From NCBI GenBank assembly GCA_958295925.1, contig OY282384.1, forward strand, positions 1,572 through 65,571: 64,000 bases of DNA, given 5' to 3'. Position numbers and translations under genes: made by a program. Source of the stretch: an uncultured Acidimicrobiales bacterium. Lineage in GTDB: Bacteria > Actinomycetota > Acidimicrobiia > Acidimicrobiales > CATQHL01. The notes under the pieces were generated by a model. It was given only the letters and a program-made list of their open reading frames with translations, was not told where the DNA came from and did not search any database. Positions 17,224 to 60,637 of this stretch are shown here, piece after piece (position 1 is the first letter of the stretch; each line of letters opens with the position of its first letter).

Positions 17224-17652
17224 ATGACGGACTTCCTCACCCCGGAAGACCGCTCCCGGCTGATGTCCAAGATCAGAGGAAAGGACACCCGGCCAGAGAA
17301 AACCGTGCGCCAGCTCCTCTGGCACGCCGGATTCCGCTACCGGCTGAACGACAGGAAGCTGCCGGGAACCCCAGACCTGGCGCTAGCCCGATACCGCACC
17401 GCCGTCTTCGTCAACGGATGCTTCTGGCACCGCCACGACTGCCGGAAAGGCACGAAGCTCCCCAAGACAAACCGGCAGTACTGGCTGAAGAAATTCGCCG
17501 ACAACGCCGCGCGAGACGCCGCCAATCTCCGGATACTATCCCAGTACGGATGGACGACCACGGTGATCTGGGAATGCAGAATGGAAGAGGGGACGCAGCA
17601 CCTGCTGTTGGAGCTGTCCGAAAAGAGACGAAGGGAGAAGGACCGAACATGA
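17224..17652 (+). CDS. vsr: very short patch repair endonuclease
   Basis: RSRLMSKIRGKDTRPE..LPGTPDLALARYRTAVFVNGCFWHRHDC..TNRQYWLKKF..GWTTTVIWEC matches E. coli Vsr along its length. Confidence 0.93.
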   Translation: MTDFLTPEDRSRLMSKIRGKDTRPEKTVRQLLWHAGFRYRLNDRKLPGTPDLALARYRTAVFVNGCFWHRHDCRKGTKLPKTNRQYWLKKFADNAARDAANLRILSQYGWTTTVIWECRMEEGTQHLLLELSEKRRREKDRT

Positions 17653-24848: not shown

Positions 24849-24927
24849 AACAGCAGGCCAATCCCTAACCCCGCCAGCGGCGCTACGACAAGACAACCAC
24901 CAGACCGACAAAGGAGAACCAAACAAC

Positions 24928-25455
24928 ATGCGCGACCCCAAGCCCAAGATGGCCCAGCCCCTGCCCCACACCGGCCCCCACCCCGGGGCGGACGGCAGAG
25001 TAAGAATGTTTAGACCGGAGCCCACACCACCGCCTAGCCAATTAAATACTAAACCCATCCAGCACCTGCCCAACGACTTTCGCAAGCCCCAGGCCGCAGT
25101 GGCCGACCAGGCCCAGGCCGTACTGGCCAAGCTGCCCGGCCCCAACCTGGCCCGGGAATACGACTTCAACTGGTTCTTAACCCAGTACTTCAATAATTGG
25201 TCCCCGGAGCTCCCCCAGCCCCGCCTGGGTTGCACCCCGAGCGACGAAATCATCGCGGAATGGCAGACCCAGGATTATATTTGGGAACTGATCGTCCAAC
25301 CCGGCGACCACAGCACGGAAATGTACCGGCTGGAGGACGCCGACACCCCGGAGCAACGCAGCCGTCCCCACCGGATCGAACCCGACCTGGAAACCGCCCA
25401 GGGTTGGCGGGAAGTGCTAGACTTTCTGGGACTGAGCGACACCAGAGACGAATGA
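24928..25455 (+). CDS. hypothetical protein, family D
   Basis: AAAGGAG SD; C-terminal module NWSPELPQPRL..EIIAEWQT..WELIV..GWREVLDFLGL shared with 25961, 32102 and 35450 genes. Confidence 0.65.
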   Translation: MRDPKPKMAQPLPHTGPHPGADGRVRMFRPEPTPPPSQLNTKPIQHLPNDFRKPQAAVADQAQAVLAKLPGPNLAREYDFNWFLTQYFNNWSPELPQPRLGCTPSDEIIAEWQTQDYIWELIVQPGDHSTEMYRLEDADTPEQRSRPHRIEPDLETAQGWREVLDFLGLSDTRDE

Positions 25456-31057: not shown

Positions 31058-31930
31058 ATGGCTGGAGCAACAACAAAACAGCGCGCCAAGCGCCTGAACG
31101 ACCTCTCCGGGAAAGAGTGGATGAAATTCAGCAAGTCCTGGTTCACCCTGCCCCCAGGCAAGCCCGACAAGGCCAAGCAGGCCCTCCACCCCGCCACGTT
31201 CCCGGACACCCTGGCCGAACAATATATTACCTTCTTCACCCAGCCCAGCCAGGCCGTCCTGGACCCCTTCCTGGGCAGCGGGACGACAATAGAAGCCGCC
31301 GAGCGCTTGGACAGAAAAGCCGTCGGCATCGAACTAGAACCCAGCTTCGCCGACTTCGCCCGCACCCGAACCGGCAGCCCTATCCTGGTCGGCGACGCCC
31401 TGACGGTACTACAGGACCACGACCGGCTCCCCAACCACTCAATAGACTACATCCTGACCTCGCCGCCTTATTGGAACACCCTGGCCCAGAGCCGCGGCGG
31501 CAACAAGGACACCCGCCACAAGAAAAGAAAAGAACGCGGCGACGCTTTAACCTACGGCGACCACCCCGCCGACCTGGGCAACCTGGATGACGCCGAGGAG
31601 TACATCGCCAAGCTGGTCGACATCCTCGCCCACGCCCACCGCGTGCTAAGACCCAAGGGCTACCTGACCGTGATCATCCAGAACCTGAACTACCAGGGCT
31701 CCTTAGTACCAATCGCCTGGCAGCTGGGGATGGCCCTGGCCAACACCGGCCTCTACGACCTGAAAGGCGAACGCATCTGGTGCAAAGAACAAGGCCGGCT
31801 GGGCATCTACGGCTACCCCACCGCGTATCAGACCAATAATTTCCATCACTACTGCCTGACCTTCCGCCGGAAAGGAGACCAAGACCAGCAACAGCGCCGG
31901 ACAGAAGTCGCGCCCAGCCCCCAAGGCTGA
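31058..31930 (+). CDS. DNA methyltransferase (SPPY type; N4-cytosine or N6-adenine)
   Basis: HPATFPDTL..VLDPFLGSGTT (motif I) precedes ILTSPPYWN (motif IV). Confidence 0.85.
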   Translation: MAGATTKQRAKRLNDLSGKEWMKFSKSWFTLPPGKPDKAKQALHPATFPDTLAEQYITFFTQPSQAVLDPFLGSGTTIEAAERLDRKAVGIELEPSFADFARTRTGSPILVGDALTVLQDHDRLPNHSIDYILTSPPYWNTLAQSRGGNKDTRHKKRKERGDALTYGDHPADLGNLDDAEEYIAKLVDILAHAHRVLRPKGYLTVIIQNLNYQGSLVPIAWQLGMALANTGLYDLKGERIWCKEQGRLGIYGYPTAYQTNNFHHYCLTFRRKGDQDQQQRRTEVAPSPQG

Positions 31931-39133: not shown

Positions 39134-42100
39134 ATGCAGAACGACCCCGCCCAGACCACCGACGCCACTCAAGACGCCATCCAGCAAGCCCTCCAGTCCC
39201 TGGAAGAAAACAACCCCAACCCAACCCAAGGCCGCTGGCTGGAAGCCATAACCATCAGCGCCGCGCCCCTGATTAAAGAATACGACCTAGCCGCCTGCCA
39301 TTCCTGGGCCGACTGGCCCGAGCGGGAAGACCACTTCCCGGAGACTTCCCAGCAGGACATCGGCATCGACGCCGTAGCCCAACGCCGGTCCGATGGCGCC
39401 TACGTCGCCATCCAGTGCAAAGCCCGGCAACTCAACGAAGCCGGCCAGGGCCAGGACATCCAGAAAGGCGAATTGGACAAGTTCGTCGCCGCCTCCAGCA
39501 ACCCCCTCTGGGCCGAACGCTGGCTGGTCACCAACGGCGACAACCAGATCAGCGGCAACGCCGGGCAAGTGGCAACCATGTCCGACCCCGGCCGCCCGGT
39601 CAAGCTGGTCAACCTCCACGCCGACCTGGTGGCTCAGGCCCAGAGCCAAAGCTACCAGGAAGAACCCTGCCCCCACTGCCGGGCCCAGGAGGACGCCTTC
39701 CTGCCGGATAACTACATTGACAGTAACGACGGCGCGAGCCGGCCCATCCAGACCAAGTCCTGCATGCAGCACGAGGCCGTCGCCGCCAGCGTCCGAATAC
39801 TCAAAGAGCACGAACAATCCGATACCGGCGGCCTCCCCGTCGGCCAGGCCCGCGGCCGACTGATATTACCCTGCGGCACCGGGAAGACCCGCATATCACT
39901 GCGAATAGTGGAAGAACTGACCGACCCCGGGCAGCTTTCGATAGTACTCTGTCCTTCAATCGCATTGGTCGCCCAGCTGCGGCAGGAATACCTCAACCAG
40001 GCCCACCGGCCCCTCCGCGCCCTGGCCGTCTGCTCCGACCAGACCGCCGGCTACGACCCCCGGGGCGAGGATAAGCGCAACACCGCCGAAGACCCCACCC
40101 TGGACAACAGCAACGTCAGCGCCAAGGAACTCAAAGGCAAAGTAACCACCGACTCCCAGGAGATCGCCGACTGGATACGGCAAGGACAAGCAGAGAACCA
40201 GGAAAGCGACGACAAAGCCATCAGCGTCATCTTCGGCACCTACCAATCCGGCGCCGCCGTCGCCGAAGCCCTGAAGCTGGCCGAAGCCGAGGTCCAGGTC
40301 CTCATCGCCGACGAGGCCCACCGCACCGCCGGGCTGAAAAAGAAGCAGGGCGCCTCCGCCAAGGCCTACGAGGCCGAGCAGCGCATCCGCGACTTCACCC
40401 TGTGCCACGACCAACAGGCCTTCCCGGCAAAATATCGCATCTACCAGACCGCCACCCCGCGGATCTACACGCAGCAAGCCCGCCGGGCCGTCCCCGACAG
40501 CGACTGGGTGGTCCGCTCGATGAACGACGAATCCATCTTCGGCGTGGTCCTCTACGAAAAACAGTACGTCGAAGCCGTCAGGAACGAATGGCTCAGCGAC
40601 TACAAGATAATCGCCCTGGGAGTGAACGACCACCAGGCCCTGGAACAAGCCAATCTGATGGCCCTCCAGGACACCGGAAAAGGGACCAACCAGCTGACCG
40701 TCACCAAGTACCTGAAGGGGCTGGCCTTCGCCCTGGCCATGGCCGGCGCCACTCAGTGGCCGCCCAACCCGGAAGACAAGCAGGACGACCAAGACGGCCA
40801 GAACAACCAACAGACCCAACAACAGCGCAACCAAACTGAAAAGCTCCACCTGCCGATCCAATCCTGCATCGCCTTCATGAACACGGTGGAGAAGTCCAAG
40901 AAGATGCAGCGAGAGCTGAGCACGGACACCATCCGCAGCTGGCTCCGCATCTGGATGGCAGAGAACAAGATGCCGGAAGGGCCGGCGCACTATCAACTGG
41001 AGCACCTGGACGCGAGCAGCAACATCGTCAAACGCGACAACGCCAAACGCAAACTGGCCCAAGCCACCAAAGAAGCACCCCACGCCATCATCAACGTCGG
41101 CATCTTCGGCGAAGGGACCGACTCACCCTCCCTGAACGCCATCGCCTTCCTGGAACCCCGGCGCAGCCCCATCGACGTGATTCAAGCCGTGGGAAGAGCC
41201 ATGCGGACTTCTCCAGGAAAGGAAACCGGCTACATCATCTGCCCCATCGTGATTCCGCCCAACGCCGACCCCGAACAATGGCTGAAGCACAGCGGACCCG
41301 ACGACGGCTGGAAGGAGCTGGGCGATATTCTCCTAGCGCTCAGGGCTCATGACTCCAGGATCGAAGACAACCTGGCCGACCTGCTGACCCTCTACGTCCC
41401 CAAGCCGCCGCCGGTAGTGACTAATCTAGTAGCCATCGCGATCGGAGAGGACAAGCGTTTCAGCTACCGGGAGCATACCGGAGAACCCGGCCAAGCCGTG
41501 GAAGACCTGGAACTCGTGCTGACCGACCAGATGCCGATCAATAGAAAGTTCCGGCCGGTAACCGAAAGGACCGGGAACGAAGCCGCCCGGCTCAGCGTCA
41601 CCGCCGCCAGGACCGGCCCGCTTTCCGAGGAAGACGGCCCCATGTTCCAAGGGCTGAACGGCAGCCCCGAAGGCGCCGGCCAGCCCGGCACGGCCCCCGC
41701 CGCCGAAGCAGCGGCAACGATTGAAACAACCCAAGCTATTACAGCCCATCTCCCGGAACCCACCGAGATCCTAGCCGGTAAGAAGCACAGCGACGGCTCC
41801 CTGGAAATCCGCCAGGATTGCGTGGTACGGCAGAAGCCCCAGAACGACGGCACTCCAGGGCCAATCGACCTGGACAAGTCCAAGAAGCGCGCCCAGGACA
41901 TGCTCAACAAAGGCGAAGGCCTCCGCCTGGCCACCGGCGAGAACCGGCCGCCCCGCCGCCAGCGCCGCAGCATCCACGAGGAATCAGCCTACCAGCTATT
42001 GATGCGGACCAACCTGGACGAACACGGCCAGGCCATCCAGATGAACCTCCTGGCCAAGTCGGGACTGGTCCAGAACCGGCCCCAGCGGGACGCCAACCTG

Positions 42101-44467
42101 ATCGAAGCCTCCATCAAGGAGGCCGCCCACCAACTCACCCAGGACGGACTCAAGGCGGAATTGGAACGACACCTAGGCCTGGACCTACTCAAGCCCGACG
42201 ACAAGAAGCAGCAGGCCGACGGCTGCACCATCGCCGCCCTATTACTGATGAACGCCGCCATGCTGCACCAGCGCATCGCCCAAGGGCAGTGGCTGCCCAA
42301 CGTCAGCGACCTGAAGGAAATCAAACAGGACGTCCACGTAATTAGAAGAATCAAAAGGGAATGGGACCGCATCGGCCGCGTCGACTTCCTGCCTATAATA
42401 GAACCGGCCCTCAGCGTCATCGAAACCATCGAGGACACGGAACGGGTCGCCGGCCTGGAACGGGCCCTGCGGCACCTGGCAGCCGAGGCCGAACGCCTGG
42501 CCGCCACCTACGCCGACCTGGGCGCCGACCACGCCGGAGCGCTATTCAACAAGGTACGCGGCCACCAGGCCTCCGACGGCGCCTACTTCACCCGGCCCAC
42601 GGCAGCGTCGCTATTGGCCCGACTGACCCTGGACTGCCACGAACCCCAGGACTGGACCAGCGAAGAGACCTGGCGGGAAATGAAGACGATTGATTTAGCC
42701 TGCGGCAGCGGGACGATCCTGGCCGCCGTCCTGGCCGACCTGAAACGCCGGGCTCGGCTGCAGGGAGCTAGCGAAGAGCACCTCGCCCAGCTGCAGAAAA
42801 TAGCCGTCGAAGACGTCCTCAAGGGCCTGGACATTGACCCCATCTCCCTGCAGCTGGCCGCCGCCCAGCTCACCGGCGGAACCCAGGACATCCGCTATAG
42901 AAGAATGGGCCTGTTCCAGATGCCCTACGGCCCCAACCCCGAATACCCGGACCGCGTCTCCGCCGGAACCCTGGAACTGATCAGCCAGCAGTCCCTGGTC
43001 CCCCAGCCCGGGCAGCTTGGATTCCAAGACGAAGCGATCCAGACCCGGAACGCCTGGGAGAAGCAGCAGGAGACCGCGCTGGAAGGCGCGGTGGAAGCCG
43101 CACGAAGTCCCCGGAACATCGTAATGAACCCACCCTTCAGCAACCGCACCAAGGTCGGAGAGAAATTTCCCAAGGAGATTCAGAACAAGCTGCGGCAACG
43201 GATCGACCAGATGGAGAACCTGCTGGTGAAAAGCGACCCGGGCCTGACGGAGTTCGTCGACAAGAACTCCGTCATGCCCTTGTTTGCGGCCCTAGCGGGC
43301 CAACTGCAACAAGGGCATGAGAACAACGTCCTGAGTATGATCTGCCCAACTATCTCGCTCTCCAACACATCAGGATTAAACGAGCGAAAACTACTCGCCC
43401 AGCGATACCACATCCGCACGATCCTGACTTCCCACCAACCACGCAACGTCAATATGAGCCAAGGCACGGGCATCCACGAAAGTATTGTCATCATGGACAA
43501 TCAAGCCCCAGGCTCCAGGGTGCCAACCCGTTTCGTCCACCTAGACCGGATGCCAGTGGCTGAAACCGAGGTTGCGGACTTACACCAAAATCTGCAGGAT
43601 TGCCAACAAGGCCAAATTCCAAACGGATGGGGAGAGATCTCCCAGTGGCCCGCCAATCAAATGGAACAAGGCGACTGGACGCCAGCCGTCTGGCGGTCGC
43701 CCGAATTGGCGGAAGCGGCCCGGCAATTCGCCGCCCACCCGGAAATGCGAACCATTCAGGAACACGGATATTCTTGTGAAGCCACCCGCGATATGATGAG
43801 GAAGTCCAACTTTATCCCGGCCACTCCCGGAAATAAAAGTAGCTTTCCCATCATCGACTCAAAAGGCGCCGACGGACAGAGAACCATCCGAAGCACGCCG
43901 GACGCGCAATGGCAGCCGACGAACCCGGACGAAGAGCAACGCATGCGCAAACGACTACTATCAAAAGCCGGTTTCCTGATGATAACATCAGGACAGAATA
44001 CGTCCACCGCCCGGCTGACCACCATTGCCAGTGACGAAGCCTACGTCGGACGTGGGTGGCTGCCCATCACCGGGCCTAACGCCGAGGAAGCTAAAGCCGT
44101 AGCAGTATTCCTCAACTCTACCCCAGGCCGTCTCCAAATACTGAGCAGCGCCGGTCGCACAATAGCCTTCCCCCAATACAATCCAGAGCCCCTGGAGAGC
44201 ATCCAAATCCCCAATATCAAAGAAAAAGCAACCCTGAAGACCCTAACCGACTGCTGGGAGGCAACGAAAAACATGGTAGTCCCCCAGTTCCGCGACGGAG
44301 AATGCAGAGTGCGACAACTCTGGGACGAAGCAGTCGCCGAAGCTCTAGGCTGGGACCCTGAAGAATTAACCCGGCTCCGCCTACTCTTGCACCAAGAGCC
44401 CCACGTGCGAGGACTAGGCTACAACCAGTACCAAGAAGCAGAAACGATTCACGAGGAAGGAAATTAG
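39134..44467 (+). CDS. Type ISP-like single-polypeptide restriction-modification enzyme (nuclease + SF2 helicase + N6-adenine methyltransferase + C-terminal specificity region)
   Basis: 1777 aa. N-terminal PD-(D/E)xK-like DIGIDAV..YVAIQCK; helicase motifs I PCGTGKT, II IADEAHR, III QTATP, VI QAVGRAMR; methylase motifs I DLACGSGTIL and IV NIVMNPPFS. Confidence 0.85.
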   Translation: MQNDPAQTTDATQDAIQQALQSLEENNPNPTQGRWLEAITISAAPLIKEYDLAACHSWADWPEREDHFPETSQQDIGIDAVAQRRSDGAYVAIQCKARQLNEAGQGQDIQKGELDKFVAASSNPLWAERWLVTNGDNQISGNAGQVATMSDPGRPVKLVNLHADLVAQAQSQSYQEEPCPHCRAQEDAFLPDNYIDSNDGASRPIQTKSCMQHEAVAASVRILKEHEQSDTGGLPVGQARGRLILPCGTGKTRISLRIVEELTDPGQLSIVLCPSIALVAQLRQEYLNQAHRPLRALAVCSDQTAGYDPRGEDKRNTAEDPTLDNSNVSAKELKGKVTTDSQEIADWIRQGQAENQESDDKAISVIFGTYQSGAAVAEALKLAEAEVQVLIADEAHRTAGLKKKQGASAKAYEAEQRIRDFTLCHDQQAFPAKYRIYQTATPRIYTQQARRAVPDSDWVVRSMNDESIFGVVLYEKQYVEAVRNEWLSDYKIIALGVNDHQALEQANLMALQDTGKGTNQLTVTKYLKGLAFALAMAGATQWPPNPEDKQDDQDGQNNQQTQQQRNQTEKLHLPIQSCIAFMNTVEKSKKMQRELSTDTIRSWLRIWMAENKMPEGPAHYQLEHLDASSNIVKRDNAKRKLAQATKEAPHAIINVGIFGEGTDSPSLNAIAFLEPRRSPIDVIQAVGRAMRTSPGKETGYIICPIVIPPNADPEQWLKHSGPDDGWKELGDILLALRAHDSRIEDNLADLLTLYVPKPPPVVTNLVAIAIGEDKRFSYREHTGEPGQAVEDLELVLTDQMPINRKFRPVTERTGNEAARLSVTAARTGPLSEEDGPMFQGLNGSPEGAGQPGTAPAAEAAATIETTQAITAHLPEPTEILAGKKHSDGSLEIRQDCVVRQKPQNDGTPGPIDLDKSKKRAQDMLNKGEGLRLATGENRPPRRQRRSIHEESAYQLLMRTNLDEHGQAIQMNLLAKSGLVQNRPQRDANLIEASIKEAAHQLTQDGLKAELERHLGLDLLKPDDKKQQADGCTIAALLLMNAAMLHQRIAQGQWLPNVSDLKEIKQDVHVIRRIKREWDRIGRVDFLPIIEPALSVIETIEDTERVAGLERALRHLAAEAERLAATYADLGADHAGALFNKVRGHQASDGAYFTRPTAASLLARLTLDCHEPQDWTSEETWREMKTIDLACGSGTILAAVLADLKRRARLQGASEEHLAQLQKIAVEDVLKGLDIDPISLQLAAAQLTGGTQDIRYRRMGLFQMPYGPNPEYPDRVSAGTLELISQQSLVPQPGQLGFQDEAIQTRNAWEKQQETALEGAVEAARSPRNIVMNPPFSNRTKVGEKFPKEIQNKLRQRIDQMENLLVKSDPGLTEFVDKNSVMPLFAALAGQLQQGHENNVLSMICPTISLSNTSGLNERKLLAQRYHIRTILTSHQPRNVNMSQGTGIHESIVIMDNQAPGSRVPTRFVHLDRMPVAETEVADLHQNLQDCQQGQIPNGWGEISQWPANQMEQGDWTPAVWRSPELAEAARQFAAHPEMRTIQEHGYSCEATRDMMRKSNFIPATPGNKSSFPIIDSKGADGQRTIRSTPDAQWQPTNPDEEQRMRKRLLSKAGFLMITSGQNTSTARLTTIASDEAYVGRGWLPITGPNAEEAKAVAVFLNSTPGRLQILSSAGRTIAFPQYNPEPLESIQIPNIKEKATLKTLTDCWEATKNMVVPQFRDGECRVRQLWDEAVAEALGWDPEELTRLRLLLHQEPHVRGLGYNQYQEAETIHEEGN

Positions 44468-44475
44468 ACCAAAAC

Positions 44476-45462
44476 ATGAAGGTATGGGAGCCGAACCCAA
44501 ACGCCACCCGGGAGCAGAGCAAGGCCTTCGGAAACGCAATAGGCACAATTGACCTCACTCTCAAGAGCATGCTCAAATCTCTAGAACCCCAAGACGAATA
44601 CCTAGAGCTAAGGGCCCACGTCCAGCAACCAGCTGTAGAGCTTGGGAAACTACTGCCCATCGGAAGACACGGAGGGAACCTATTAGCAGAGGTAATCCAA
44701 GACCTCTTGTTGCACCCACTGCAAGCACCCACAGAAGCTAAACCATTCATCAAGCAATTCGAGTTCGAGATGCTTTACTGCAAATGGATCACCGAGCCAA
44801 AAGCAATGCAGACTCTGAGAAGCATGGCCAGAGGCAGCCAACGCGGGATATTCCATCCACGACCGGCAGAAGTAGTACACACTACTAAGTGGCAGCTCCG
44901 CAAAGAGATCCACCCGATGCACGGGATAAAGCACACCGGCGAGGGCTTCTTCCAAACCGAGGAACGCCTCTTCCAAGATTACAAGGAACCGACAATCGAC
45001 ATCGGTGCTTGGGGAAGCCAGCCACTATACGAGACAATCACGGAGGCCGGAGAAACCAAACAATTCACCCTCCTAGAGACAATCCGTTACATTCGGAACA
45101 CAGAAGGAGCCCACAGCGACACCAGTAAGCGGAAGGAGAGGGAAATCGCCCTCATGGACGTATTTGGCGACGCCGACAGCTTCAGCTACCCTCACTGGGT
45201 AATCATCCTGACCGCAGTCTACTTACGGAACGAATACGTCCTAGCACTGGAAAGAGCACCAGAGCATTGGAAACCGTACGTAGACCAGAAGCTAGTCCTT
45301 CACCTGACCGGAAAGTTACCCGAACCAAAGAGGATGCGCGGCGTCCAAGTACTAGAACCCAAGTCAGCAATGACCATTTACCTCCCAGACAACGTCAGCT
45401 CCCTGCCGACAGAAGGACAACGCCACTGGCTACATCGCACCATCACGAACCGCCACAAGTAA
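44476..45462 (+). CDS. hypothetical protein with a HEPN-like Rx4-6H motif (lower GC)
   Basis: 328 aa; IRYIRNTEGAHSD fits RNxxxxH; gene is visibly AT-richer than its surroundings. Confidence 0.5.
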   Translation: MKVWEPNPNATREQSKAFGNAIGTIDLTLKSMLKSLEPQDEYLELRAHVQQPAVELGKLLPIGRHGGNLLAEVIQDLLLHPLQAPTEAKPFIKQFEFEMLYCKWITEPKAMQTLRSMARGSQRGIFHPRPAEVVHTTKWQLRKEIHPMHGIKHTGEGFFQTEERLFQDYKEPTIDIGAWGSQPLYETITEAGETKQFTLLETIRYIRNTEGAHSDTSKRKEREIALMDVFGDADSFSYPHWVIILTAVYLRNEYVLALERAPEHWKPYVDQKLVLHLTGKLPEPKRMRGVQVLEPKSAMTIYLPDNVSSLPTEGQRHWLHRTITNRHK

Positions 45463-45529
45463 ACCTACCCCAGAGAAACACCAACCGACATAAAATAACA
45501 CTCAAGAGCCGAGAAGGAGAACGAAAGCG

Positions 45530-46135
45530 ATGAGTAAGAAAGACACCCTTAGAAACCACGTGGACACTGAGCTCAGAGCAATCCTAAACTTGACCATAGA
45601 AGAGAATGGAATACTACATTCCATCCCAGGAGAGGAAGAAGTAATCCAGGAAGGAACCATCTCTGTATCAGAACTACTACAGATGCGTTACCCACTCAGA
45701 GGAGAGATTACGAATGCCAGAGGAGGATATACACTCTTCAATTTCAGCTTGCCCAGCAGGAAAGAAGTAAGGAGACTAAAAGACCAGTACTTCCTTGAGC
45801 ACGAAAATATGAGATACGTACGCGTCTCAGAGCTCGAAGCAGCAGATTTTCCACAATTAGAATCTGCACAGTGGAGCAACAAATACACCCTAGTAGAGGC
45901 TACAAGGTACCCACCGGAATTCCGCAACGCGATCAAATTCTCGAACGCACGAGCAACTCTGTACAAAGCCTTGATCCAAGGCTTAGACGACACCGAGGAG
46001 AAACTGGAACTAAAAGGGAATTTCGAGAATGCGTTTACCGCATTCAAGGACCAGATAAAGATCACCATAGACGGAGCGAGCCTCAAGGTAGAATGCTACT
46101 TCAAGGTCGCAAGTAAAAACAAGGAACTAACATAG
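45530..46135 (+). CDS. hypothetical protein (lowest-GC gene in the window)
   Basis: GAAGGAG SD; track ORF 201 aa; no motif recognised. Confidence 0.55.
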   Translation: MSKKDTLRNHVDTELRAILNLTIEENGILHSIPGEEEVIQEGTISVSELLQMRYPLRGEITNARGGYTLFNFSLPSRKEVRRLKDQYFLEHENMRYVRVSELEAADFPQLESAQWSNKYTLVEATRYPPEFRNAIKFSNARATLYKALIQGLDDTEEKLELKGNFENAFTAFKDQIKITIDGASLKVECYFKVASKNKELT

Positions 46136-46225
46136 AAGCGAAAACTCCCTTAACATAACCCCTACAATGAAGACTTGCCGCCTGCCTGCATCCATCCTCA
46201 CATCCACCCCCACAGGAGGCAAGTC

Positions 46226-46591
46226 ATGTCTGACCCAGACTCCAGTACCCCACTGTCCTTGCCAGCCGACGACAAGACCAACAGCCCTACCAGTGCCCCC
46301 ACCGACCTCCCCGTCCTGAAGACCGCCCACGCCGAACGAAGACTCCAGCAACGCGGCATCAACCCCGGCATCATCCAGGTCCTCCTGGACTACGGCGTCT
46401 GCCGCCGGATCCGCAACCGCGATTCGATCTCCTACTCCATGAACCGGGACGCGAGGAAGAAAGCCCGCCGCGGCCTGGGCGACGCCCAGTACAAAGTAAT
46501 CGAGAAATGGTTCCACTGCTACCTGGTGGTCTGCCCCAAGAAGGACGTAACCATCACCGTCGGACACCGGAAGCGACGCCTGCGCCGCTAG
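46226..46591 (+). CDS. DUF4258-like putative toxin
   Basis: AGGAGG 46214-46219, ATG 46226; TAHAERRLQQRGINPGIIQVLLDYG resembles the H-x-x-x-R-x-x-x-RGI signature of DUF4258. Confidence 0.5.
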   Translation: MSDPDSSTPLSLPADDKTNSPTSAPTDLPVLKTAHAERRLQQRGINPGIIQVLLDYGVCRRIRNRDSISYSMNRDARKKARRGLGDAQYKVIEKWFHCYLVVCPKKDVTITVGHRKRRLRR

Positions 46592-47359: not shown

Positions 47360-47563
47360 ATGCCGGACTACACCGAATACCCGCACCAGTACGTAGGCAT
47401 CAGCCAGCCCATCGACCAAGCCGAAGCCAAGCTCATGGACAACTACGACCTGTCGGAGTGCATAAGAACCGACAACGGAATCGTCATCGAGAACTGGACC
47501 TACGCCCTGACCGACGCAACCGCAGCAGTGCTGGAAGCAACCCTGACCAAAGAGCAGGAATAG
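47360..47563 (+). CDS. small hypothetical protein
   Basis: Track ORF 67 aa; ends TAG 47561-47563 with the frame continuing open. Confidence 0.5.
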   Translation: MPDYTEYPHQYVGISQPIDQAEAKLMDNYDLSECIRTDNGIVIENWTYALTDATAAVLEATLTKEQE

Positions 47564-47617
47564 ACCAGAACGCGAAAACGCCTGCAGCTATCCCTGCAGC
47601 AGACCGGCGACGCCGCA

Positions 47618-47833
47618 GTGGACGACCTGTTTCCGACCGCGGTTCAAGGCCCCGAACTCCCGAGAATCATCCACGTGGAGCAGCAGAACGGACAGAAGCT
47701 CACCACATTGATGCGACCCAGCTCCTTCACCGGCTGGCTGGAGTCGACCAACCCCAAAGCGACCAGCACCCGAACAGTCGAGCTGGTACAACCCCCGGAA
47801 CGCAGACTGCCCCGGTGGACCGAGCGAACTTAA
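47618..47833 (+). CDS. possible small protein, start undefined
   Basis: Coding-looking frame (..IIHVEQQNGQKLTTLMRPSSFTGWLEST..), in phase with the previous gene across its TAG; no SD before GTG 47618. Confidence 0.3.
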   Translation: MDDLFPTAVQGPELPRIIHVEQQNGQKLTTLMRPSSFTGWLESTNPKATSTRTVELVQPPERRLPRWTERT

Positions 47834-47859
47834 CCCCAACTAACAAGGAGGATTGCCTC

Positions 47860-48120
47860 ATGGCAGACTTCGGCACCGCCATCAGCGACCTGAAAGCAGG
47901 ACACCGGGTCACGCGCCCCGGCTGGAACGGCCAGGGCATGTACCTGGAACTGCACAAAGCGGGCCCCGACTGCCCCATGACCAACGACTACATCTTCATG
48001 AAGACCAGCGACGACAACTTAGTACCCTGGCTAGCCAGCCAGACCGACATGCTGGCCGAAGACTGGACCCGAACCCTCAACCCGGAAACCCCGGCCGTAG
48101 CCGAACCGCAGACCAGCTAA
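47860..48120 (+). CDS. DUF2829 / Tad2-like protein (anti-Thoeris family)
   Basis: AAGGAGG 47845-47851, ATG 47860; FGTAISDLKAGHRVTRPGWNGQGMYL..IFMKTSDDNLVPWLASQTDMLAEDW matches the DUF2829 signature. Confidence 0.8.
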   Translation: MADFGTAISDLKAGHRVTRPGWNGQGMYLELHKAGPDCPMTNDYIFMKTSDDNLVPWLASQTDMLAEDWTRTLNPETPAVAEPQTS

Positions 48121-49808: not shown

Positions 49809-50249
49809 TTGGAGAAGCTCAAAAGAAGATTACCCCAGGTATTAGTGACTACAGCCGCCACAGCCTTAGTAGCTATGAGCATAAACACGACACTGGAACA
49901 AGGAGACAGTCGACTGCAGCAAGCTTGGCAGGAAGCCATAGACTACGACCGAAGCCGGGAAGGGAGCGAGTACACGAAGACGCAGAACGAGGCCTGGAAG
50001 GAGTTCCTCACGAACAAGAGATACGAACTAGACGAGGAACTAAGAGAAGTAAGACAAGACATAATATCCTTTCAGAGCCGGTACCTCACCTGCTCGAGAA
50101 ACGCAATGGCTGCTGCCAACACAGAAGCCATGCAACAATGCGAGACAATGTGGGGGCCATTCCGAGACAATCAAGACCGCCAGCACCAGCTGCTCGGCGA
50201 GATAGGAATCACCAGACAACTCTACGAAACCGCCACCAAGCGACCGTAA
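49809..50249 (+). CDS. hypothetical secreted/anchored protein
   Basis: GGAG + 8 nt + TTG 49809; hydrophobic N-terminus LPQVLVTTAATALVAMSI. Confidence 0.45.
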   Translation: MEKLKRRLPQVLVTTAATALVAMSINTTLEQGDSRLQQAWQEAIDYDRSREGSEYTKTQNEAWKEFLTNKRYELDEELREVRQDIISFQSRYLTCSRNAMAAANTEAMQQCETMWGPFRDNQDRQHQLLGEIGITRQLYETATKRP

Positions 50250-50286
50250 GAGAAGAACCTGCATTGCAAGAATCAGGAAGACGAAA

Positions 50287-50997
50287 ATGGGATTCGGACG
50301 AGACCTAAGGGCCGCAGCCACCTTCGGAACAGTTCACACCAGGAAGCATAAGAACGCCGAAGACGCGCTAGAAAGGCGGACAGTCATCCACGAAGAAAGA
50401 GTAAGGCAGTTCTACGAAAGCAGAGAACGCCTCCAGACCCACGTCAAAGAAATGAACCAAGCATTCAACCAAGCCCAAGAAGTCCTCCGCACCAAAAAGC
50501 CAATAGGCCAGCCCAATGATTCCAACTCGAACCGAAGAGTAGAAGACCCAGGAATAAACTTCGACGAATTATTCGACATACACATGCTATTCCCCTGGCC
50601 ACCCTTCCTGGGCTTAGGCATAATCACACTGCCGCTCGGAGCAGCCATCGCTGGGAAACAAGAAAGAGAGTTCCTAGAAATGAGCAGGCAATCCGCGGAA
50701 CGGATGACCGCAATAGAAAGCGACTTCAACTCAATCACAGAGAAACTGCCGCCATACCAGGACCTGCAAAGGACAACGGAAGAGCTACAGACACATACGA
50801 GGGAACTAGCAGAAAGCACACCCGAGGCACCGGCAGAGGAAGAGCATGCCTACCAATTAGAACAAGCGATGCTCCAGGCATTACACCTGATACGAGCAAT
50901 CAACGAAGCGACTGGAGAACCAGACACCAGCCAGTTCTACCGCCAGCATAGGCAACAAGAAGGACCCGAGCGAGTAAACGGAGCCATACCACTCTAG
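50287..50997 (+). CDS. divergent G-family member (reduced hydrophobic core, no N-terminal TM)
   Basis: TFGTVHTRKHKNAEDALER aligns with GGLTATKHGSDRIKRAQ; core reduced to PPFLGLGIITLPLGAAIAG. Confidence 0.55.
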   Translation: MGFGRDLRAAATFGTVHTRKHKNAEDALERRTVIHEERVRQFYESRERLQTHVKEMNQAFNQAQEVLRTKKPIGQPNDSNSNRRVEDPGINFDELFDIHMLFPWPPFLGLGIITLPLGAAIAGKQEREFLEMSRQSAERMTAIESDFNSITEKLPPYQDLQRTTEELQTHTRELAESTPEAPAEEEHAYQLEQAMLQALHLIRAINEATGEPDTSQFYRQHRQQEGPERVNGAIPL

Positions 50998-56247: not shown

Positions 56248-58131
56248 ATGACTAACGCCGCCAACAGCCAGGCAGTCCAACAGCCAGGGCATAAATCGCC
56301 TCTTACAGAGCCGATTTATGCCCAAGGTCCCCTCAATCGCGGTGTCTATATCGCCGACAACTACCATTTCCTCCAGTCCTTAAACTCAGAAAGCATCGAC
56401 CTCTGCGTCATCGACCCGCCCTTCGCCAAAAACGAAACCTTCGGCCGCCGCAATCCCAAGAACCCGGACCCGCTGAAACCGCCCCTCTCCGCCCTGGAAC
56501 AGCAGACCGAGCTGGAACTCCTGGCCCGCTGGGGCATCCACAACCAGGAACAAGCCGACCAAGCCGGCATCAACTGGCCCGAAACCCGGTACCACGACAT
56601 CTGGTCCTGGGAGAAGGACATCCATGAGAACTGGCTGACCGACTTGAAGGCCGACCACCCGGCCATCGCCGAGCTGATCGAAGCGGCCGCCCTGACCCAC
56701 AGCGACTCCACCGCCGCCTACCTCTGCTACATGGCAGTCCGCCTGCTGGAGATTCACCGCGTGCTGAAAGCCACCGGGAGCCTGTACCTCCACTGCGACC
56801 ACACCGCCAACGGGTATTTAAGAATGCTGCTGGACGCAGTATTCGGACACCAGAACTTCAGGAATGAGATCACATGGAGAAGAACCTACGCCCACAACGA
56901 ACAGAAACAATATGGCCGCACCAGCGACACCATACTGTTCTACAGCAAGTCAACAGAACATAAATGGAACAGGGTACTAACCCCCTACACAGAGGAGTAC
57001 AAAGGAAAGTATTTCAATTACTCGGACGAGAGGGGAATATTCCAGCCAATCACATTGACCGGAGCAGGAACTACCCGCGCCGAGTCCGGCAGCACCTGGA
57101 AAGGATACAACCCAACAGATTCAGGGAGACACTGGAGCATCCCTAGACGAATCATCCAACAATTAGTTGGAGAAAAAGCAAACCAACTTTCCCTGGAAGA
57201 GAAGATGAACCTACTAGAGCGGGAAGGATACATCTATTGGCCCAAGGAAGGGAACACACCCAGAGTTAAACAATATCTCCACGAGATGAAAGGGACACCA
57301 GTCCAAGACATCTGGACTGACATCGGACCACTCTCTGCACACGCAGCCGAACGCACCGGCTACCCCACCCAGAAACCAGTCGCCCTGTCCGAAAGAATAA
57401 TCAAAGCCTCCACCAACGAAGGCGACGTCGTCCTGGACTGCTTCGCCGGCTGCGCCTACGTCCCCGTCGCCGCCGAAAGATTGAATCGACGCTGGCTGGC
57501 CTGCGACCTCAACCCCCGCGCCTGGACCGTCTTCAAACGCCAATTTTCCAAGCCCTCCCTGGCTCTGCTGGACTGCCAGGAGGAGACCCACGACCAATAC
57601 ACTCTGGGCGAAGGCTTCAACGGCCTGGCCACCGTCCACGGGCCCAACGAACTGCCGGTCCGCACCGACCCGGAGCACAACGGCCACGCCAAGACCAGGA
57701 ACCTGCCCACCCCGGAACGCAAGTTCAAAGTCCCCGCCGCCAACATGCCGAACCAGCTAATGCTGCAGAAATTACTGGAACTCTCCGGCTACCAGGCCTG
57801 GTGCTGCGGCTTCGCCAATCGCAAGGCGGACGGTACAGTAGTCCAGACCACCAACAACTTTCACCTGGACCACATCAACCCTAAAAGCGTCAGCGGCTCC
57901 GGCTGGTCCAACGACATCACCAACCGCGCCCCGCTCTGCCCGCATCACAATATTCAGAAATCCAACCGCAGAGTCGGATTATACGAACTCCGCCAGGAGA
58001 TAGAAAAGGCCGGCGAGCTGCTAGTCGACTCCGTCAGGGAACTGAAAGACCTGGACCAAGCCCACCACCAGGCCCTGCAGCTGCACCTAAAAGCAGAGCT
58101 GGATAAGCAGCAGCCATTCGTACAGCTGTAG
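56248..58131 (+). CDS. beta-class DNA methyltransferase fused to a C-terminal HNH nuclease domain
   Basis: LCVIDPPFAKNE (motif IV); GYPTQKPVAL..VVLDCFAGCAY (motif I region); C-terminal FHLDHINPKS..NRAPLCPHHNIQKSN (HNH). Confidence 0.85.
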   Translation: MTNAANSQAVQQPGHKSPLTEPIYAQGPLNRGVYIADNYHFLQSLNSESIDLCVIDPPFAKNETFGRRNPKNPDPLKPPLSALEQQTELELLARWGIHNQEQADQAGINWPETRYHDIWSWEKDIHENWLTDLKADHPAIAELIEAAALTHSDSTAAYLCYMAVRLLEIHRVLKATGSLYLHCDHTANGYLRMLLDAVFGHQNFRNEITWRRTYAHNEQKQYGRTSDTILFYSKSTEHKWNRVLTPYTEEYKGKYFNYSDERGIFQPITLTGAGTTRAESGSTWKGYNPTDSGRHWSIPRRIIQQLVGEKANQLSLEEKMNLLEREGYIYWPKEGNTPRVKQYLHEMKGTPVQDIWTDIGPLSAHAAERTGYPTQKPVALSERIIKASTNEGDVVLDCFAGCAYVPVAAERLNRRWLACDLNPRAWTVFKRQFSKPSLALLDCQEETHDQYTLGEGFNGLATVHGPNELPVRTDPEHNGHAKTRNLPTPERKFKVPAANMPNQLMLQKLLELSGYQAWCCGFANRKADGTVVQTTNNFHLDHINPKSVSGSGWSNDITNRAPLCPHHNIQKSNRRVGLYELRQEIEKAGELLVDSVRELKDLDQAHHQALQLHLKAELDKQQPFVQL

Positions 58132-58255: not shown

Positions 58256-60496
58256 CTACAGACCAAGCAAGGAAAGCCCGAGACGCTGCCGCGCAACATC
58301 AATCGAACAAATCCTCACCTTCATAACCTGCCCAGCAGCAAAAGCATCTGCCGCCCGCCAATCCTCCCCCGGTGGGATCTCGGTCTTATGCACCAAGCCT
58401 TTCAAACCCAGCTCAAAGCGGACGAAGATACCAAAATCAGCCAGGCCGTCATAAACCCCTACTATCACGTCCCCCACGGAATGACGCTCAGCCAGGAAGT
58501 CCCAAGGGTCCCGGAGACACGGAAGAGTCAACCGCACGTTCCCCTTCTCCGGGTCCCTACCATCCACGGAAGTCACCCGAACAACGACAGGATCGCCCAC
58601 TGAAAGCTCACCCAATTCCTGGGCAGCGAGCATAGAGAGACACTCCGAAGGAACAAGACCATCCACAACCCCCAACGAGACAAAAGCCCCATGCTCAGTA
58701 ATCGAAGACACTCTACTGCTGAACTCCTGGCCCACCTGGAAAGACTGCCGCCGCCCCCGCCGTACAGCCTCAACCCCACCGGCAGTGTCCAACTCCACCC
58801 ACGGACCCCACCCATGCCCGTTCACCGCCCGGACGCGGTAACGAGCACCAGCAACAAGGCTCCGCCCCACCATCGTAGAGAAGGCGCCAGAGCGACCACC
58901 CACTGAAACATCCCGATCCGACTGCCATTCCCCAGCATGATGCTGTACCTCAAAATGCGTCACGGGAGAATAACCGGACCACACCGGCATCTCCCAGGAG
59001 AAGCCATAAGCGTCTCCCCGCTGATAAACCAAGGACAAAGAGCGCACCGCGCCAGGAAAAGCACCTTTCACCTGCACCGACGAACCGTGCCAAGGCGTGG
59101 AATAACCCCGCCACCTTGCCCGAACACGATATTCGTAAAGAAACGTCTCCAGAGGAGGCACCAGCGGTTGATCCACAAAATCGACACCCTCGGTCTCAGG
59201 GAAGACCTCGTCCTCGCTGAACCCAGAAAGAGAAGAGACATACCGGACAACTTCAAAAACGACGCCGTCAGGACGGCAGGACAAGCTCCAAGAAAGGTCG
59301 ACCATCCCACTCCCCGGGCGGACCGCAGCCCGCAGCGGAGACAAACCCAGAACAGAAGAAACCGCCTGCACCAACTCCTCCTCAGTGAGAGAAATCAGGG
59401 CCCAAGGCCCAGGGATACCAACATCGCTAATACCCCGCACCCGAACCGAAAGACCCGACAAGTCGGTTACCTCGTAAGAATAAGGAACATCCGAACAGAC
59501 ACACTCGAACCGGACCGACCCATCGGAGAATTTTTCCACCGGACAAGAACAGGGAACCCCCGGAACGGTTTCGACGGCAGCCCAGGAACCAGAGAAAGAA
59601 TCCCAAGACTCCAACTCATACGCGCGAGTAGGAAGGATCTGCCGCGGCCCCAAGTCGCCAGAGAGTCCCCACTTCAAACCGAAAAGGAAATTTTGATTCT
59701 CCGGATCAAAGGACAGCCCAGCCGACTTCAACGCCAGCAGCGGAACCGCAGAGACACTGGTCACCTCAGCAAAGCGCGCAGCGCCAAAAACCGCCCGCTC
59801 CTGCTTATAAGCCTTCAAAGCCCATTCACACCGCCACGCCGTCTGACGACTATCTAAAGGCGGCGAAAGCCAACGAATCCGATGCTCACCCCGATTGCGA
59901 GTATCAGAATTACGAACCTTCTTCCAATGTTCGTCATAAATGAGAACAAACTCAGAGGAACGATACTCAACGACCCTAGAGCTATAGGCCCCTGGATTCC
60001 GAATATCATTACGCCCCGCCATATACAAGGCATTCTTAGCAACAACCTCATGTTGAAACTGACGAAGCGAGGGATTGTAAGTCATACCAACGTAACCAGT
60101 CTCCAGCTGGTAGACAAAGAATCCTTCACGAAGCAATGGCTTACCCTTGCACCCAGGGACAATCCCATCAACCGGCTCAACAGAACAAACATTGCTAGTG
60201 CAACTGGACGGCTTGCCCCCACAGGAGAGATCAAGCGTCACCAACCACCCAGCACAGAACGGACACATTGGAGAATCAACTTCCAGATAATGCTTTTCCT
60301 TGTGATCGGGATCGACACAAGCACGAGCGCAAGCGCCACAGACAAACTCGGACTGCGACTTAGCAGAACCGCACATGGCACAATCCAGGAGCAACAAAGG
60401 GTCCAGCAACCCCAAAACACGGTTCATCTCAGGAAGATGAGAACTCTCCCCAGCCAGGAACCGCCGCGACCAGACGTCACGATACTCAGTAGTCAT
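58256..60496 (-). CDS. multidomain protein: zinc ribbon + GIY-YIG nuclease + FN3-like repeats + two S1 RNA-binding domains
   Basis: 746 aa. CAMCGS..CGACARAC; FFVYQLETGYVGMTYNPSLRQFQHE (GIY-YIG); YEYRVRARW and ARYRVRAVNGHGWGPW (FN3-like); GQEFSSRVSSITEHGAFVSL and VGDVIVGVYDGLADFGIFVRF..GLVHKTEI..GQVMKVRICSIDVARQRLGLSL (S1). Overlapping + ORFs are Arg-rich junk. Confidence 0.75.
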   Translation of the reverse strand: MTTEYRDVWSRRFLAGESSHLPEMNRVLGLLDPLLLLDCAMCGSAKSQSEFVCGACARACVDPDHKEKHYLEVDSPMCPFCAGWLVTLDLSCGGKPSSCTSNVCSVEPVDGIVPGCKGKPLLREGFFVYQLETGYVGMTYNPSLRQFQHEVVAKNALYMAGRNDIRNPGAYSSRVVEYRSSEFVLIYDEHWKKVRNSDTRNRGEHRIRWLSPPLDSRQTAWRCEWALKAYKQERAVFGAARFAEVTSVSAVPLLALKSAGLSFDPENQNFLFGLKWGLSGDLGPRQILPTRAYELESWDSFSGSWAAVETVPGVPCSCPVEKFSDGSVRFECVCSDVPYSYEVTDLSGLSVRVRGISDVGIPGPWALISLTEEELVQAVSSVLGLSPLRAAVRPGSGMVDLSWSLSCRPDGVVFEVVRYVSSLSGFSEDEVFPETEGVDFVDQPLVPPLETFLYEYRVRARWRGYSTPWHGSSVQVKGAFPGAVRSLSLVYQRGDAYGFSWEMPVWSGYSPVTHFEVQHHAGEWQSDRDVSVGGRSGAFSTMVGRSLVAGARYRVRAVNGHGWGPWVELDTAGGVEAVRRGRRQSFQVGQEFSSRVSSITEHGAFVSLGVVDGLVPSECLSMLAAQELGELSVGDPVVVRVTSVDGRDPEKGNVRLTLPCLRDPWDFLAERHSVGDVIVGVYDGLADFGIFVRFELGLKGLVHKTEIPPGEDWRAADAFAAGQVMKVRICSIDVARQRLGLSLLGL

Positions 60497-60637
60497 AAAA
60501 CAACACCACCCCCGCCAAGAGATTACTTTCCCGATTATAGAAAAGAGAGAAAGCCTACTCTCTAAACGAAAACGCCCCCAGTCCTAAACCACTGCCCCGC
60601 AGCTGCAATCCGGCTTCCGCCGTCTGGTTTGGTTCCT

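Follow-up and report, generated by a model that had tools for sequence, protein, structure and literature searches.

A Type ISP-like restriction-modification enzyme from a large unnamed clade, followed by two genes that are probably unrelated to it

The open reading frame at 39134-44467 of the window, the whole 64-kb stretch of DNA that was analysed, is confirmed to encode a Type ISP-like restriction-modification enzyme of 1777 aa. The enzyme probably stands alone, with the two genes that follow it being unrelated cargo. The find is a divergent member of a known enzyme class, accompanied by orphan genes. The features are listed below by nucleotide position in the window, and residue numbers refer to the 1777-aa protein.

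39134 to 44467, + strand: Type ISP-like restriction-modification enzyme of 1777 aa, a single polypeptide and the short form of its clade (open reading frame, translation, Pfam and PADLOC matches, homology to LlaBIII and LlaGI)
39287 to 39616, + strand: Mrr-type PD-(D/E)xK nuclease, aa 52-161 (Pfam Mrr_cat_2, E 5.3e-14)
39764 to 41416, + strand: SF2 helicase-like ATPase/translocase with motifs I-VI, aa 211-761 (ResIII, E 5e-15; Helicase_C, E 2.7e-5)
40763 to 40843, + strand: Q/D/N-rich low-complexity insert of 27 aa between the RecA lobes, aa 544-570 (alignment gap)
41534 to 41773, + strand: disordered linker, poorly conserved and variable in length, aa about 801-880 (mean pairwise identity 0.39, against 0.6-0.77 elsewhere)
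41774 to 42643, + strand: conserved helical region before the methylase, aa 881-1170 (AF2 helices H75-H298, identity 0.71)
42644 to 43483, + strand: gamma-class N6-adenine DNA methyltransferase core, aa 1171-1450 (motifs I and IV; fold)
43484 to 44464, + strand: C-terminal mixed alpha/beta region, presumed target-recognition domain, aa 1451-1777 (AF2, Foldseek)
44476 to 45462, + strand: 328-aa protein of an unnamed family, not HEPN (25 remote homologues)
45530 to 46135, + strand: orphan gene of 201 aa, lowest in GC within the window (open reading frame call, GC, searches)

The original prediction of a Type ISP-like enzyme is borne out, as four modules, the last of them a presumed recognition domain, lie in the order known from LlaGI and LlaBIII and their catalytic motifs are intact. 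Its component claims hold as well: the PD-(D/E)xK-like N-terminus through the Mrr_cat_2 match and motifs that align with LlaBIII, the SF2 helicase motifs through Pfam profiles and homology to LlaBIII and LlaGI, the gamma-type methylase motifs DLACGSGTIL and NPPF through invariant or nearly invariant family columns, and the Q/D/N-rich helicase insert, which had been placed at about 40780-40850.

GVDLV and IQAK of LlaBIII have their aligned counterparts in GIDAV (aa 77-81) and IQCK (aa 93-96) of the nuclease. The predicted catalytic residues are D75/D79 and Q94-x-K96, and D75, G77, I78, D79, Q94, C95 and K96 are invariant in the family alignment of 21 sequences. The helicase carries GTGKT (aa 248-252), DEAH (393-396), TATP (439-442) and QAVGRAMR (684-691); the Pfam matches to ResIII and Helicase_C span aa 211-700, and aa 239-761 match 4xqk_A with an E-value of 1e-51 (phmmer). 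A profile of the family matches LlaBIII residues 16-657, comprising nuclease and helicase, with an E-value of 2.7e-71. The Q/D/N-rich insert is private to this copy, being missing from all 20 aligned homologues and gapped against LlaBIII, and is without tandem repeat structure at the DNA level.

The protein had been described as about 200 aa longer than its characterised relatives, and it does exceed LlaBIII (1578 aa) by 199 aa. Full-length members of its clade have 1666-1917 aa, so that 1777 aa is a normal length; the added length as such is ordinary within the clade. Much of the clade's spread in length is explained by the linker at aa about 801-880, of which the last ~10 residues are included in the AF2 model, which begins at aa 870 (pLDDT below 50 for model residues 1-6). 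The following region, aa 881-1170, falls inside the fold matches to BpuSI and BrxX and is read as a likely coupler together with the N-terminal helical domain of the methylase.

Motif I of the methylase, DLACGSGTIL, occupies aa 1187-1196 (nt 42692-42721) and motif IV, NPPF, aa 1332-1335 (nt 43127-43138); the DLACGSGT and NPPF columns are invariant or nearly so in the family alignment. Sequence profiles recognise this part weakly (Pfam MTS, E 0.012-0.049; PADLOC MTase_II, 3.5e-6), and PF02384 is recorded for two homologues. The AF2 model of the C-terminal half is of moderate quality (pLDDT 68, pTM 0.60) and was matched by Foldseek to BpuSI (1.4e-14), CamA (about 2e-13), BrxX (3e-13), MmeI (1e-8) and LlaBIII (4.7e-8), the methylase core also matching M.BseCI and M.TaqI. 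The alignments to enzymes with a methylase and a recognition domain extend over 660-1005 columns at low TM-scores of 0.34-0.46. The presumed recognition domain, aa 1451-1777, is the best-modelled part (pLDDT 70-95). It is conserved to the same degree as the catalytic domains (0.60-0.67) and is not hypervariable, an unusual trait in a restriction-enzyme family whose specificities vary.

Over the methylase and recognition half, roughly 1000 aa, no sequence-level match to characterised ISP enzymes was found, and these two domains are identifiable at the level of motif and fold only. No NCBIfam model reaches its cut-off for the 1777-aa protein, the PADLOC model REase_MTase_IIG is covered at positions 46-645 of 1646 only, and the nearest annotated plasmid genes, named 'type ISP restriction/modification enzyme', match over aa 36-806 only.

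Among known systems, LlaGI and LlaBIII of Lactococcus lactis (PDB 5ffj, 4xqk) are likewise single polypeptides and show the same order of modules, in which an Mrr nuclease is followed by an SF2 translocase, a gamma N6-adenine methylase and a recognition domain, the last of these being presumed in the window protein. Homology is clear for nuclease and helicase, with the catalytic motifs kept in the window protein, whereas its C-terminal roughly 1000 aa resemble LlaBIII in fold only. The window protein differs further by its added length, which includes the disordered linker and the private insert, and its clade is set apart by the recognition domain without hypervariability. In structure, the half with methylase and recognition domain is matched best by BpuSI and MmeI (Type IIG/IIL), CamA and M.BseCI, with E-values from 1e-14 to 1e-8. 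These enzymes share the gamma-class motif order with the window protein but lack a helicase motor, CamA and M.BseCI also a nuclease; where they cleave, the cut is made at a fixed distance and does not follow ATP-driven translocation. PglX/BrxX of BREX matches in fold over ~900 columns, and weak PADLOC and NCBIfam PglX matches lie over motif I. PglX, however, is part of a six-gene system and has neither nuclease nor helicase; no BREX partner genes were found in the window.

The clade comprises more than 1,888 proteins and 409 genome loci. It spans many phyla, mostly in metagenome-assembled genomes (MAGs) with names that suggest sponge symbionts. It is unnamed in the source databases, where the two named representatives are called 'hypothetical protein'. 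From the 409 loci, 80 were retrieved, all of them in bacterial MAG contigs or chromosomes (27 titled 'chromosome'), and the clade was not found in viral contigs of IMG/VR. Of the 80 loci, 36 carry a DUF7689 gene downstream and in the same orientation; in 35 it directly follows an ISP open reading frame with a C-terminal extension of ~90-105 aa, and in the remaining locus (L041) the DUF7689 gene is 1.9 kb from a short-form ISP gene. The clade thus occurs in two forms, with or without the C-terminal extension and DUF7689 partner gene, about 45% being of the former kind; the window has neither extension nor DUF7689. We know of no description of such an extension and partner for LlaGI or LlaBIII, and a literature search on Type ISP in sponges and on DUF7689 returned nothing relevant. 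The importance of this single gene is modest. It exposes a very large Type ISP-like clade now annotated as hypothetical, which has moved between many phyla, apparently in sponge microbiomes. With a single member characterised, thousands of proteins would gain a name, and it could become clear whether a symbiont community uses a shared methylation mark.

If it works as LlaGI and LlaBIII do, the enzyme would bind an asymmetric site through its methylase and presumed recognition domain, and methylation of one adenine in this site would label the DNA as self. Where the DNA is unmethylated, the SF2 motor would move the enzyme along the duplex at the expense of ATP. The N-terminal Mrr nuclease would nick the DNA, and the collision of two converging enzymes would produce a double-strand break. 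The copy in the window is a short-form member of its large, unannotated clade, which has spread across phyla and apparently among sponge-associated bacteria. Its gene has probably been resident long enough to adopt the local codon usage, and the 328-aa and 201-aa genes are probably independent cargo of the same region and not conserved partners.

All three genes lie on the + strand. The ISP stop codon and the start of the 328-aa gene, which has GGAAGGAA upstream, are 8 nt apart; 67 nt separate the 328-aa gene from the 201-aa gene, which has an AAGGAG Shine-Dalgarno sequence 9 nt upstream. Spacing of 8 nt suggests co-transcription of the ISP and 328-aa genes. A promoter/terminator scan found no terminator-like site on the + strand, but its counts did not exceed shuffle expectation, which makes it uninformative.

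The two downstream genes had been called visibly AT-richer than the rest of the window. This is correct for the genes themselves, with a GC of 0.53 (44476-45462) and 0.45 (45530-46135) against a window mean of 0.606, and 45601-46200 is the lowest-GC 600-nt stretch of all 64 kb (0.458, z -3.7). Low GC is not exclusive to them, however, as further patches with a GC of 0.50-0.51 occur at 50001-50600, 56801-57400 and 59901-60500. The claim of recent acquisition is weak: both genes show the extreme T3 avoidance of the window, and of the two only 45530-46135 has mildly atypical codon usage (z -1.8). Codon usage of the ISP gene is typical of the window (z +0.36). Repeats around 43.8-47.3 kb, examined as possible insertion scars, gave matches of chance length only.

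The 201-aa protein is a true orphan, with no detectable relative in the searches made: nothing was found in phages (tblastn), in PDB (phmmer) or in the metagenome and viral scans, and a word-index search returned only the protein itself. A weak NCBIfam match to tRNA-splicing endonuclease (E 0.014) scored 14 bits, where the cut-off is 501, and was rejected as noise.

The surrounding region is gene-dense, orphan-rich and probably mobile. Nearly all of its genes are orphans; it holds four to five orphan-type DNA methylases and, 1.3 kb downstream, a gene with a Tad2-like anti-Thoeris domain (E 1.4e-22), and DUF4258 was matched weakly. Of about 50 open reading frames scanned with Pfam and PHROG, hardly any had a match, and no capsid, terminase, relaxase or T4SS gene was among them. 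A megablast search with 36-50 kb found nothing in phage and plasmid collections, and the primase-like protein of the region has no phage or plasmid relatives. Rfam gave no matches, and the sole tRNA call, inside an open reading frame on the opposite strand, was regarded as dubious. In such surroundings the 328-aa and 201-aa genes might be offensive or selfish cargo, for instance anti-defence proteins or a toxin-antitoxin-like pair, unrelated to the ISP enzyme. The prevalence of orphans, the orphan methylases, the Tad2-like gene and the weak DUF4258 match are consistent with this, as is a homologue of the 328-aa protein in a 116-kb orphan-rich contig of the same strand composition. Neither protein resembles known anti-defence or toxin families, however, and the two genes do not co-occur elsewhere, since tblastn found no 201-aa gene accompanying the 328-aa family in L081-L087; we consider such cargo rather unlikely.

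The three genes could also form one cooperative defence operon, in which the ISP enzyme senses or cuts foreign DNA while the 328-aa protein, alone or together with the 201-aa protein, serves as accessory effector or regulator, as a partner does beside other helicase-type defence genes. The common strand, the short gaps and the scan without a + strand terminator-like site agree with this, as does the enzyme-like cluster of conserved residues retained in the 328-aa family. Four informative contexts are available for this family. In one of them (L089) the gene of member P0140 runs over the stop codon of its neighbour, a GajB-like UvrD helicase (E 2e-190) without GajA; the pair lies in a defence island between a KAP NTPase (PDC-S20) and HmaB/HmaC, the gene called downstream being a DUF1156/HmaB methylase. 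Taken together, the 8-nt spacing and the translational coupling of P0140 to the GajB-like helicase indicate that functional cooperation is possible. Against the operon, a tblastn search of the 10-kb flanks of the 80 ISP loci found no relative of either downstream gene. The trio does not recur in these loci, and the composite island of an ISP enzyme with an acquired module, as it had been proposed, is not borne out. Homologues of the 328-aa protein occur elsewhere without an ISP gene or a relative of the 201-aa gene; members other than P0140 adjoin integrase and transposase genes or lie in an orphan array with no neighbouring helicase. The 201-aa gene is without relatives, and no PADLOC model matches. 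A cooperative operon of the three genes is clearly improbable.

In a narrower version, which leaves out the 201-aa gene, the 328-aa protein would define a new family of unmatched fold and serve as effector or accessory enzyme to defence proteins that contain a helicase and to which it is coupled, here the ISP enzyme and in L089 the GajB-like UvrD helicase without GajA. Positions 39134-45462 would then be an unrecognised two-component translocating restriction variant, which we hold to be a quite improbable arrangement.

The large protein itself might serve in DNA protection or processing for a mobile element and not in restriction, in the manner of DarB of phage P1, a very large mobile-element methylase-helicase with anti-restriction function; it would, for example, modify incoming DNA. 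It does sit in a probable mobile element rich in orphan methylases, and its recognition domain is conserved family-wide. But DarB has no Mrr nuclease and another domain order, the Mrr catalytic residues are invariant in the clade, and the nuclease-helicase module is homologous to LlaBIII from end to end. With all 80 loci in bacterial MAG assemblies and the family absent from IMG/VR viral contigs, a DarB-like role is very improbable, and the reading as a stand-alone restriction-modification enzyme is preferred.

The 328-aa protein had been taken for a HEPN-type, Abi-like module by its fit to the Rx4-6H motif. The string IRYIRNTEGAHSD is indeed present at aa 203-215 (nt 45082-45120), but it is at chance level: Rx4-6H occurs four times in the protein, against an average of 2.6 in shuffles, 94% of which hold at least one, and it is found in 28 of the 36 window proteins. 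H213 is invariant. R207, the Arg of the claimed Rx5H, is replaced by Ala in almost all of the 25 remote homologues (or by Val, Ser or Ile), and R204 is variable. No HEPN, Abi or PADLOC profile matched any of the 26 family members, the Pfam HEPN families being searched at E-values up to 1. The all-alpha four-helix HEPN fold was rejected, as the protein is modelled confidently (pLDDT 84) as an alpha/beta structure around a central sheet, and Foldseek found no match to this model, HEPN or other, in PDB or BFVD. A HEPN RNase, in whose favour stand an RNxxxAH string at a helix end and the invariant His, is thus extremely improbable, with motif, profile and fold all against it; the chance-level R-x5-H string is the sole likeness to HEPN-domain Abi proteins, from which the protein differs in conserved Arg, profile match and fold match alike.

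No match to the 328-aa protein or its family was found in phages (tblastn), in the viral and metagenome scans or in PDB (family profile), and the protein had no match in Pfam, PADLOC, PHROG or NCBIfam; a word-index search returned only the protein itself. Conserved in the family are E210, H213, D/E215, Y238, H240 and W265. The family, a small one, appears to adopt a new-looking alpha/beta fold, and its conserved Glu/His/Asp/Tyr/His cluster suggests that the 328-aa protein is an enzyme. Being small, confidently foldable and without structural relative, and occurring in defence as well as mobile contexts, the family is a reasonable target for function discovery.

The flagged interval contains three co-directional ORFs:

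39134-44467, plus strand: ISP gene, encoding the Type ISP-like protein of 1777 aa
44476-45462, plus strand: gene of the 328-aa protein
45530-46135, plus strand: gene of the 201-aa protein

The intergenic gaps measure 8 nt (ISP gene to 44476) and 67 nt (44476 to 45530). A clear AAGGAG Shine-Dalgarno sequence lies upstream of 45530 and a weaker one of this type, GGAAGGAA, upstream of 44476. A scan gave no terminator-like site on the plus strand; it is uninformative there because this strand has almost no T runs.

The original prediction, a Type ISP-like enzyme forming a composite island with a recently acquired HEPN-type (Abi-like) module, is partly confirmed: the data support the enzyme but lend no support to the HEPN/Abi composite island. 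In the ISP protein Pfam detects Mrr_cat_2 at aa 52-161 (E 5e-14), ResIII at aa 211-443 (E 5e-15) and Helicase_C. The best PADLOC model is a fused restriction-methylase, with the match confined to the first 40% of the model. As a single sequence against solved structures, the protein matches LlaBIII and LlaGI, Type ISP enzymes of Lactococcus lactis, over aa 239-761 (E about 1e-51); with a 21-member family profile the match also covers the nuclease (LlaBIII 16-657, E 2.7e-71). The nuclease residues D..D...QxK, Walker A GTGKT, DEAH, TATP and motif VI QAVGRAMR are family-invariant and present in this protein. The predicted methylase strings DLACGSGTIL and NPPF were located at aa 1187-1196 and 1332-1335, in invariant or near-invariant columns of the family alignment. 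The methylase is barely visible to sequence profiles (MTS E 0.012-0.049, PADLOC MTase_II 3.5e-6), and PF02384 is on record for two ISP homologues only. A structure model of aa 870-1777, built from a 38-sequence alignment (pLDDT 68, pTM 0.60), was compared with the PDB by Foldseek and matched solely gamma-class methylase-plus-recognition-domain enzymes: BpuSI (E 1.4e-14), CamA (about 2e-13), BrxX/PglX (3e-13), MmeI (1e-8), LlaBIII (4.7e-8), M.BseCI and M.TaqI. Motifs, profiles and C-terminal fold therefore place nuclease, helicase, methylase and a presumed recognition domain, the four modules of a Type ISP enzyme, in canonical order.

The closest annotated plasmid genes carry the name 'type ISP restriction/modification enzyme' and share about 30% identity over aa 36-806; the ISP protein counts as a divergent new representative of this known enzyme class. 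By homology, a classical stand-alone Type ISP enzyme is the most likely reading: it would recognise and hemi-methylate its site, translocate at the expense of ATP and cleave upon collision. This identification is outweighed by the observations made beside it, namely a dimorphic clade with DUF7689, a conserved recognition domain, an unmatched 328-aa fold and a T-depleted strand.

The ISP protein has at least 1,888 relatives in the protein database, the top 120 of which are 1666-1917 aa long, with 55-59% identity and 98-99% query cover. Just two of the listed representatives carry source names, both 'hypothetical protein', and no NCBIfam model reaches its cut-off for the ISP protein. Scanning a single genome for each species gave 409 ISP loci. 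The best 80 are from MAGs of Dehalococcoidia, Caldilineaceae, Poribacteria, Entotheonella, Gammaproteobacteria, Gemmatimonadota, Cyanobacteria, Acidimicrobiia and Rhodothermales; several record titles (Candidatus Poribacteria, Candidatus Entotheonella) name what we take to be sponge-symbiont taxa. IMG/VR viral contigs contain next to no members of the family.

Given the lengths in this clade, 1777 aa is ordinary, and the extra length of about 200 aa originally noted against LlaGI/LlaBIII is thus not special. The Q/D/N insert noted with it is real: 27 aa (aa 544-570, nt 40763-40843) between the RecA lobes, at a gap in the LlaBIII alignment; of 21 sequences, only the window copy has it. Lengths in the clade differ mostly through a poorly conserved linker, itself variable in length, at aa about 801-880. 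The presumed recognition domain (43484-44464) shows pairwise identities of 0.60-0.67 across phyla, on par with nuclease and methylase, in a family alignment that was drawn from the closest matches and may represent one specificity group. This conservation is unlike that expected for restriction enzymes of diversified specificity and suggests a specificity common to very different bacteria.

The clade occurs in two forms. A conserved gene that encodes about 150 aa and belongs to Pfam DUF7689 (E 4e-35) lies downstream on the same strand at 36 of the best 80 of the 409 loci, in 35 directly after the ISP ORF (about 0-500 nt). It co-varies almost perfectly with a C-terminal extension of the ISP protein by 90-105 aa with the motif ...LADxWE...HPA...GHWFxAL...WLxWG: 35 of these 80 loci have both, 44 neither, and one is an exception. 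The pattern resembles a docking- or toxin-immunity-style pairing. The window protein is of the short form, without DUF7689.

Co-occurrence of the three genes, as implied by a composite island, was not observed. With 25 window proteins as tblastn queries, the 10-kb flanks of the best 80 of the 409 ISP loci gave generic methylase matches only, with no relatives of 44476-45462, 45530-46135 or any other neighbour. The 328-aa and 201-aa genes are quite probably cargo unrelated to the ISP enzyme.

A word-index search with the 328-aa protein returned the self-match alone; when 1.84 billion representatives were searched exhaustively with HMMER, 25 remote homologues emerged (E 2e-25 to 5e-4). The family could be viewed in four informative contexts:

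window, plus strand: 8 nt past the ISP gene
locus L081: adjoining a split integrase and transposases
loci L085/L086, 116-kb contig: one-directional orphan-gene array with dCTP deaminase, primase-N domain and orphan methylase
locus L089, 1-13029: dense defence island

The order in L089 is SNF2/NOV_C protein, IetS-like gene, KAP NTPase (PDC-S20), GajB-like UvrD helicase (E 2e-190, no GajA), the homologue P0140, HmaB and HmaC; the start of P0140 overlaps the helicase stop codon. Across these four contexts the family thus belongs to the cargo of mobile or defence regions. Two of these contexts adjoin helicases, as would fit cooperation of the 328-aa protein with adjoining helicase proteins, a reading of low probability; no ISP gene is present in L081, L085/L086 or L089.

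The HEPN identity originally proposed for the 328-aa protein from an Rx4-6H motif is refuted within the limits of these tools. R207, the Arg of the proposed Rx5H, is replaced by Ala in almost all 25 homologues, and R204 is variable. The pattern is at chance level (four occurrences versus a mean of 2.6 in composition-preserving shuffles, 94% of which contain at least one) and is found in 28 of 36 window proteins. None of the 26 family members matches a HEPN family, and Pfam, PADLOC, PHROG and NCBIfam offer no family for the window protein. The family motif is Y-V-A-N-T/K-E-G-A-H-x-D with H213 invariant and E210 nearly so; D/E215, Y238, H240, Y249, W265, W179, Q182 and G150 are also conserved. 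The confident AF2 model (pLDDT 83.7, pTM 0.81) places two helices N-terminally and further helices C-terminally of a six-strand sheet (aa 91-198), with H213 directly past helix 199-211. The conserved Glu/His/Asp/Tyr/His set suggests that the protein may be an enzyme.

For the 201-aa protein no relatives were found in 5.8 billion proteins, phage records, PDB, metagenome contigs, viral contigs, L081-L087 or the called genes of L089. It has a good ribosome-binding site, its codon-position statistics look like those of coding DNA, and the gene is probably a genuine orphan.

The lower GC of both downstream genes holds, with 0.53 (44476-45462) and 0.45 (45530-46135) and the window minimum at 45601-46200 (z -3.7). 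Both keep the extreme third-position T avoidance of the window (T3 0.07 and 0.11 versus about 0.04 elsewhere, A3 well above T3). Leave-one-out synonymous-codon z values are typical for the ISP gene (+0.36), unremarkable for 44476 (-0.85) and mildly outlying for 45530 (-1.77). No flanking repeats were found as insertion marks. Of the predicted recent acquisition there remains a plausible, not demonstrably recent, acquisition of 45530.

The 64-kb window is transcribed from the plus strand nearly throughout and consists mostly of orphan genes. It encodes four to five DNA methylases and a double-HATPase protein, has primase-like and Tad2-like genes and shows a weak DUF4258 match. Structural, conjugation and housekeeping genes are absent, and the window looks like a piece of a large mobile element. 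Features beyond the ISP methylase are:

6923-7714: DNA methyltransferase
15589-16842: DNA methyltransferase
31058-31930: DNA methyltransferase
56248-58131: DNA methyltransferase fused to an HNH nuclease domain
13581-13675, minus strand: tRNA-Arg(tct), 95 nt (ARAGORN), within plus-strand ORF 13046-14764
17418-19844: 808-aa protein with two GHKL ATPase domains (HATPase_c_3 8e-17, HATPase_c 1e-16)
19769-20893: ORF overlapping the end of the 808-aa gene, weak response-regulator receiver match
46227-46591: small gene, DUF4258 match below threshold (23.6 bits versus cut-off 25, E 6e-5)
47458-48120: 220-aa protein with Tad2-like (anti-Thoeris) domain (PF11195, E 1.4e-22), 1.3 kb past the flagged genes

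No restriction partner was found adjoining any of the four methyltransferases. The tRNA call is probably a false positive; Rfam has no match anywhere in the window. The small gene probably starts with ATG at 46227, preceded by AGGAGG, and has the most atypical codon usage of the window (z -3.75).

The plus strand of the window is extremely asymmetric, with an AT skew of +0.35 and a GC skew of -0.12 at 61% GC, and its genes have T at merely 3-8% of third codon positions. Plausible minus-strand genes mirror the bias with T3 well above A3 (58256-60496, S1/fn3, Pfam 4e-16; 23703-25274; 1491-2630); the T bias is therefore tied to the DNA strand, independent of coding direction. The same signature occurs in the 116-kb metagenome contig carrying a 328-aa homologue (GC 0.60, AT skew 0.35, GC skew -0.11).
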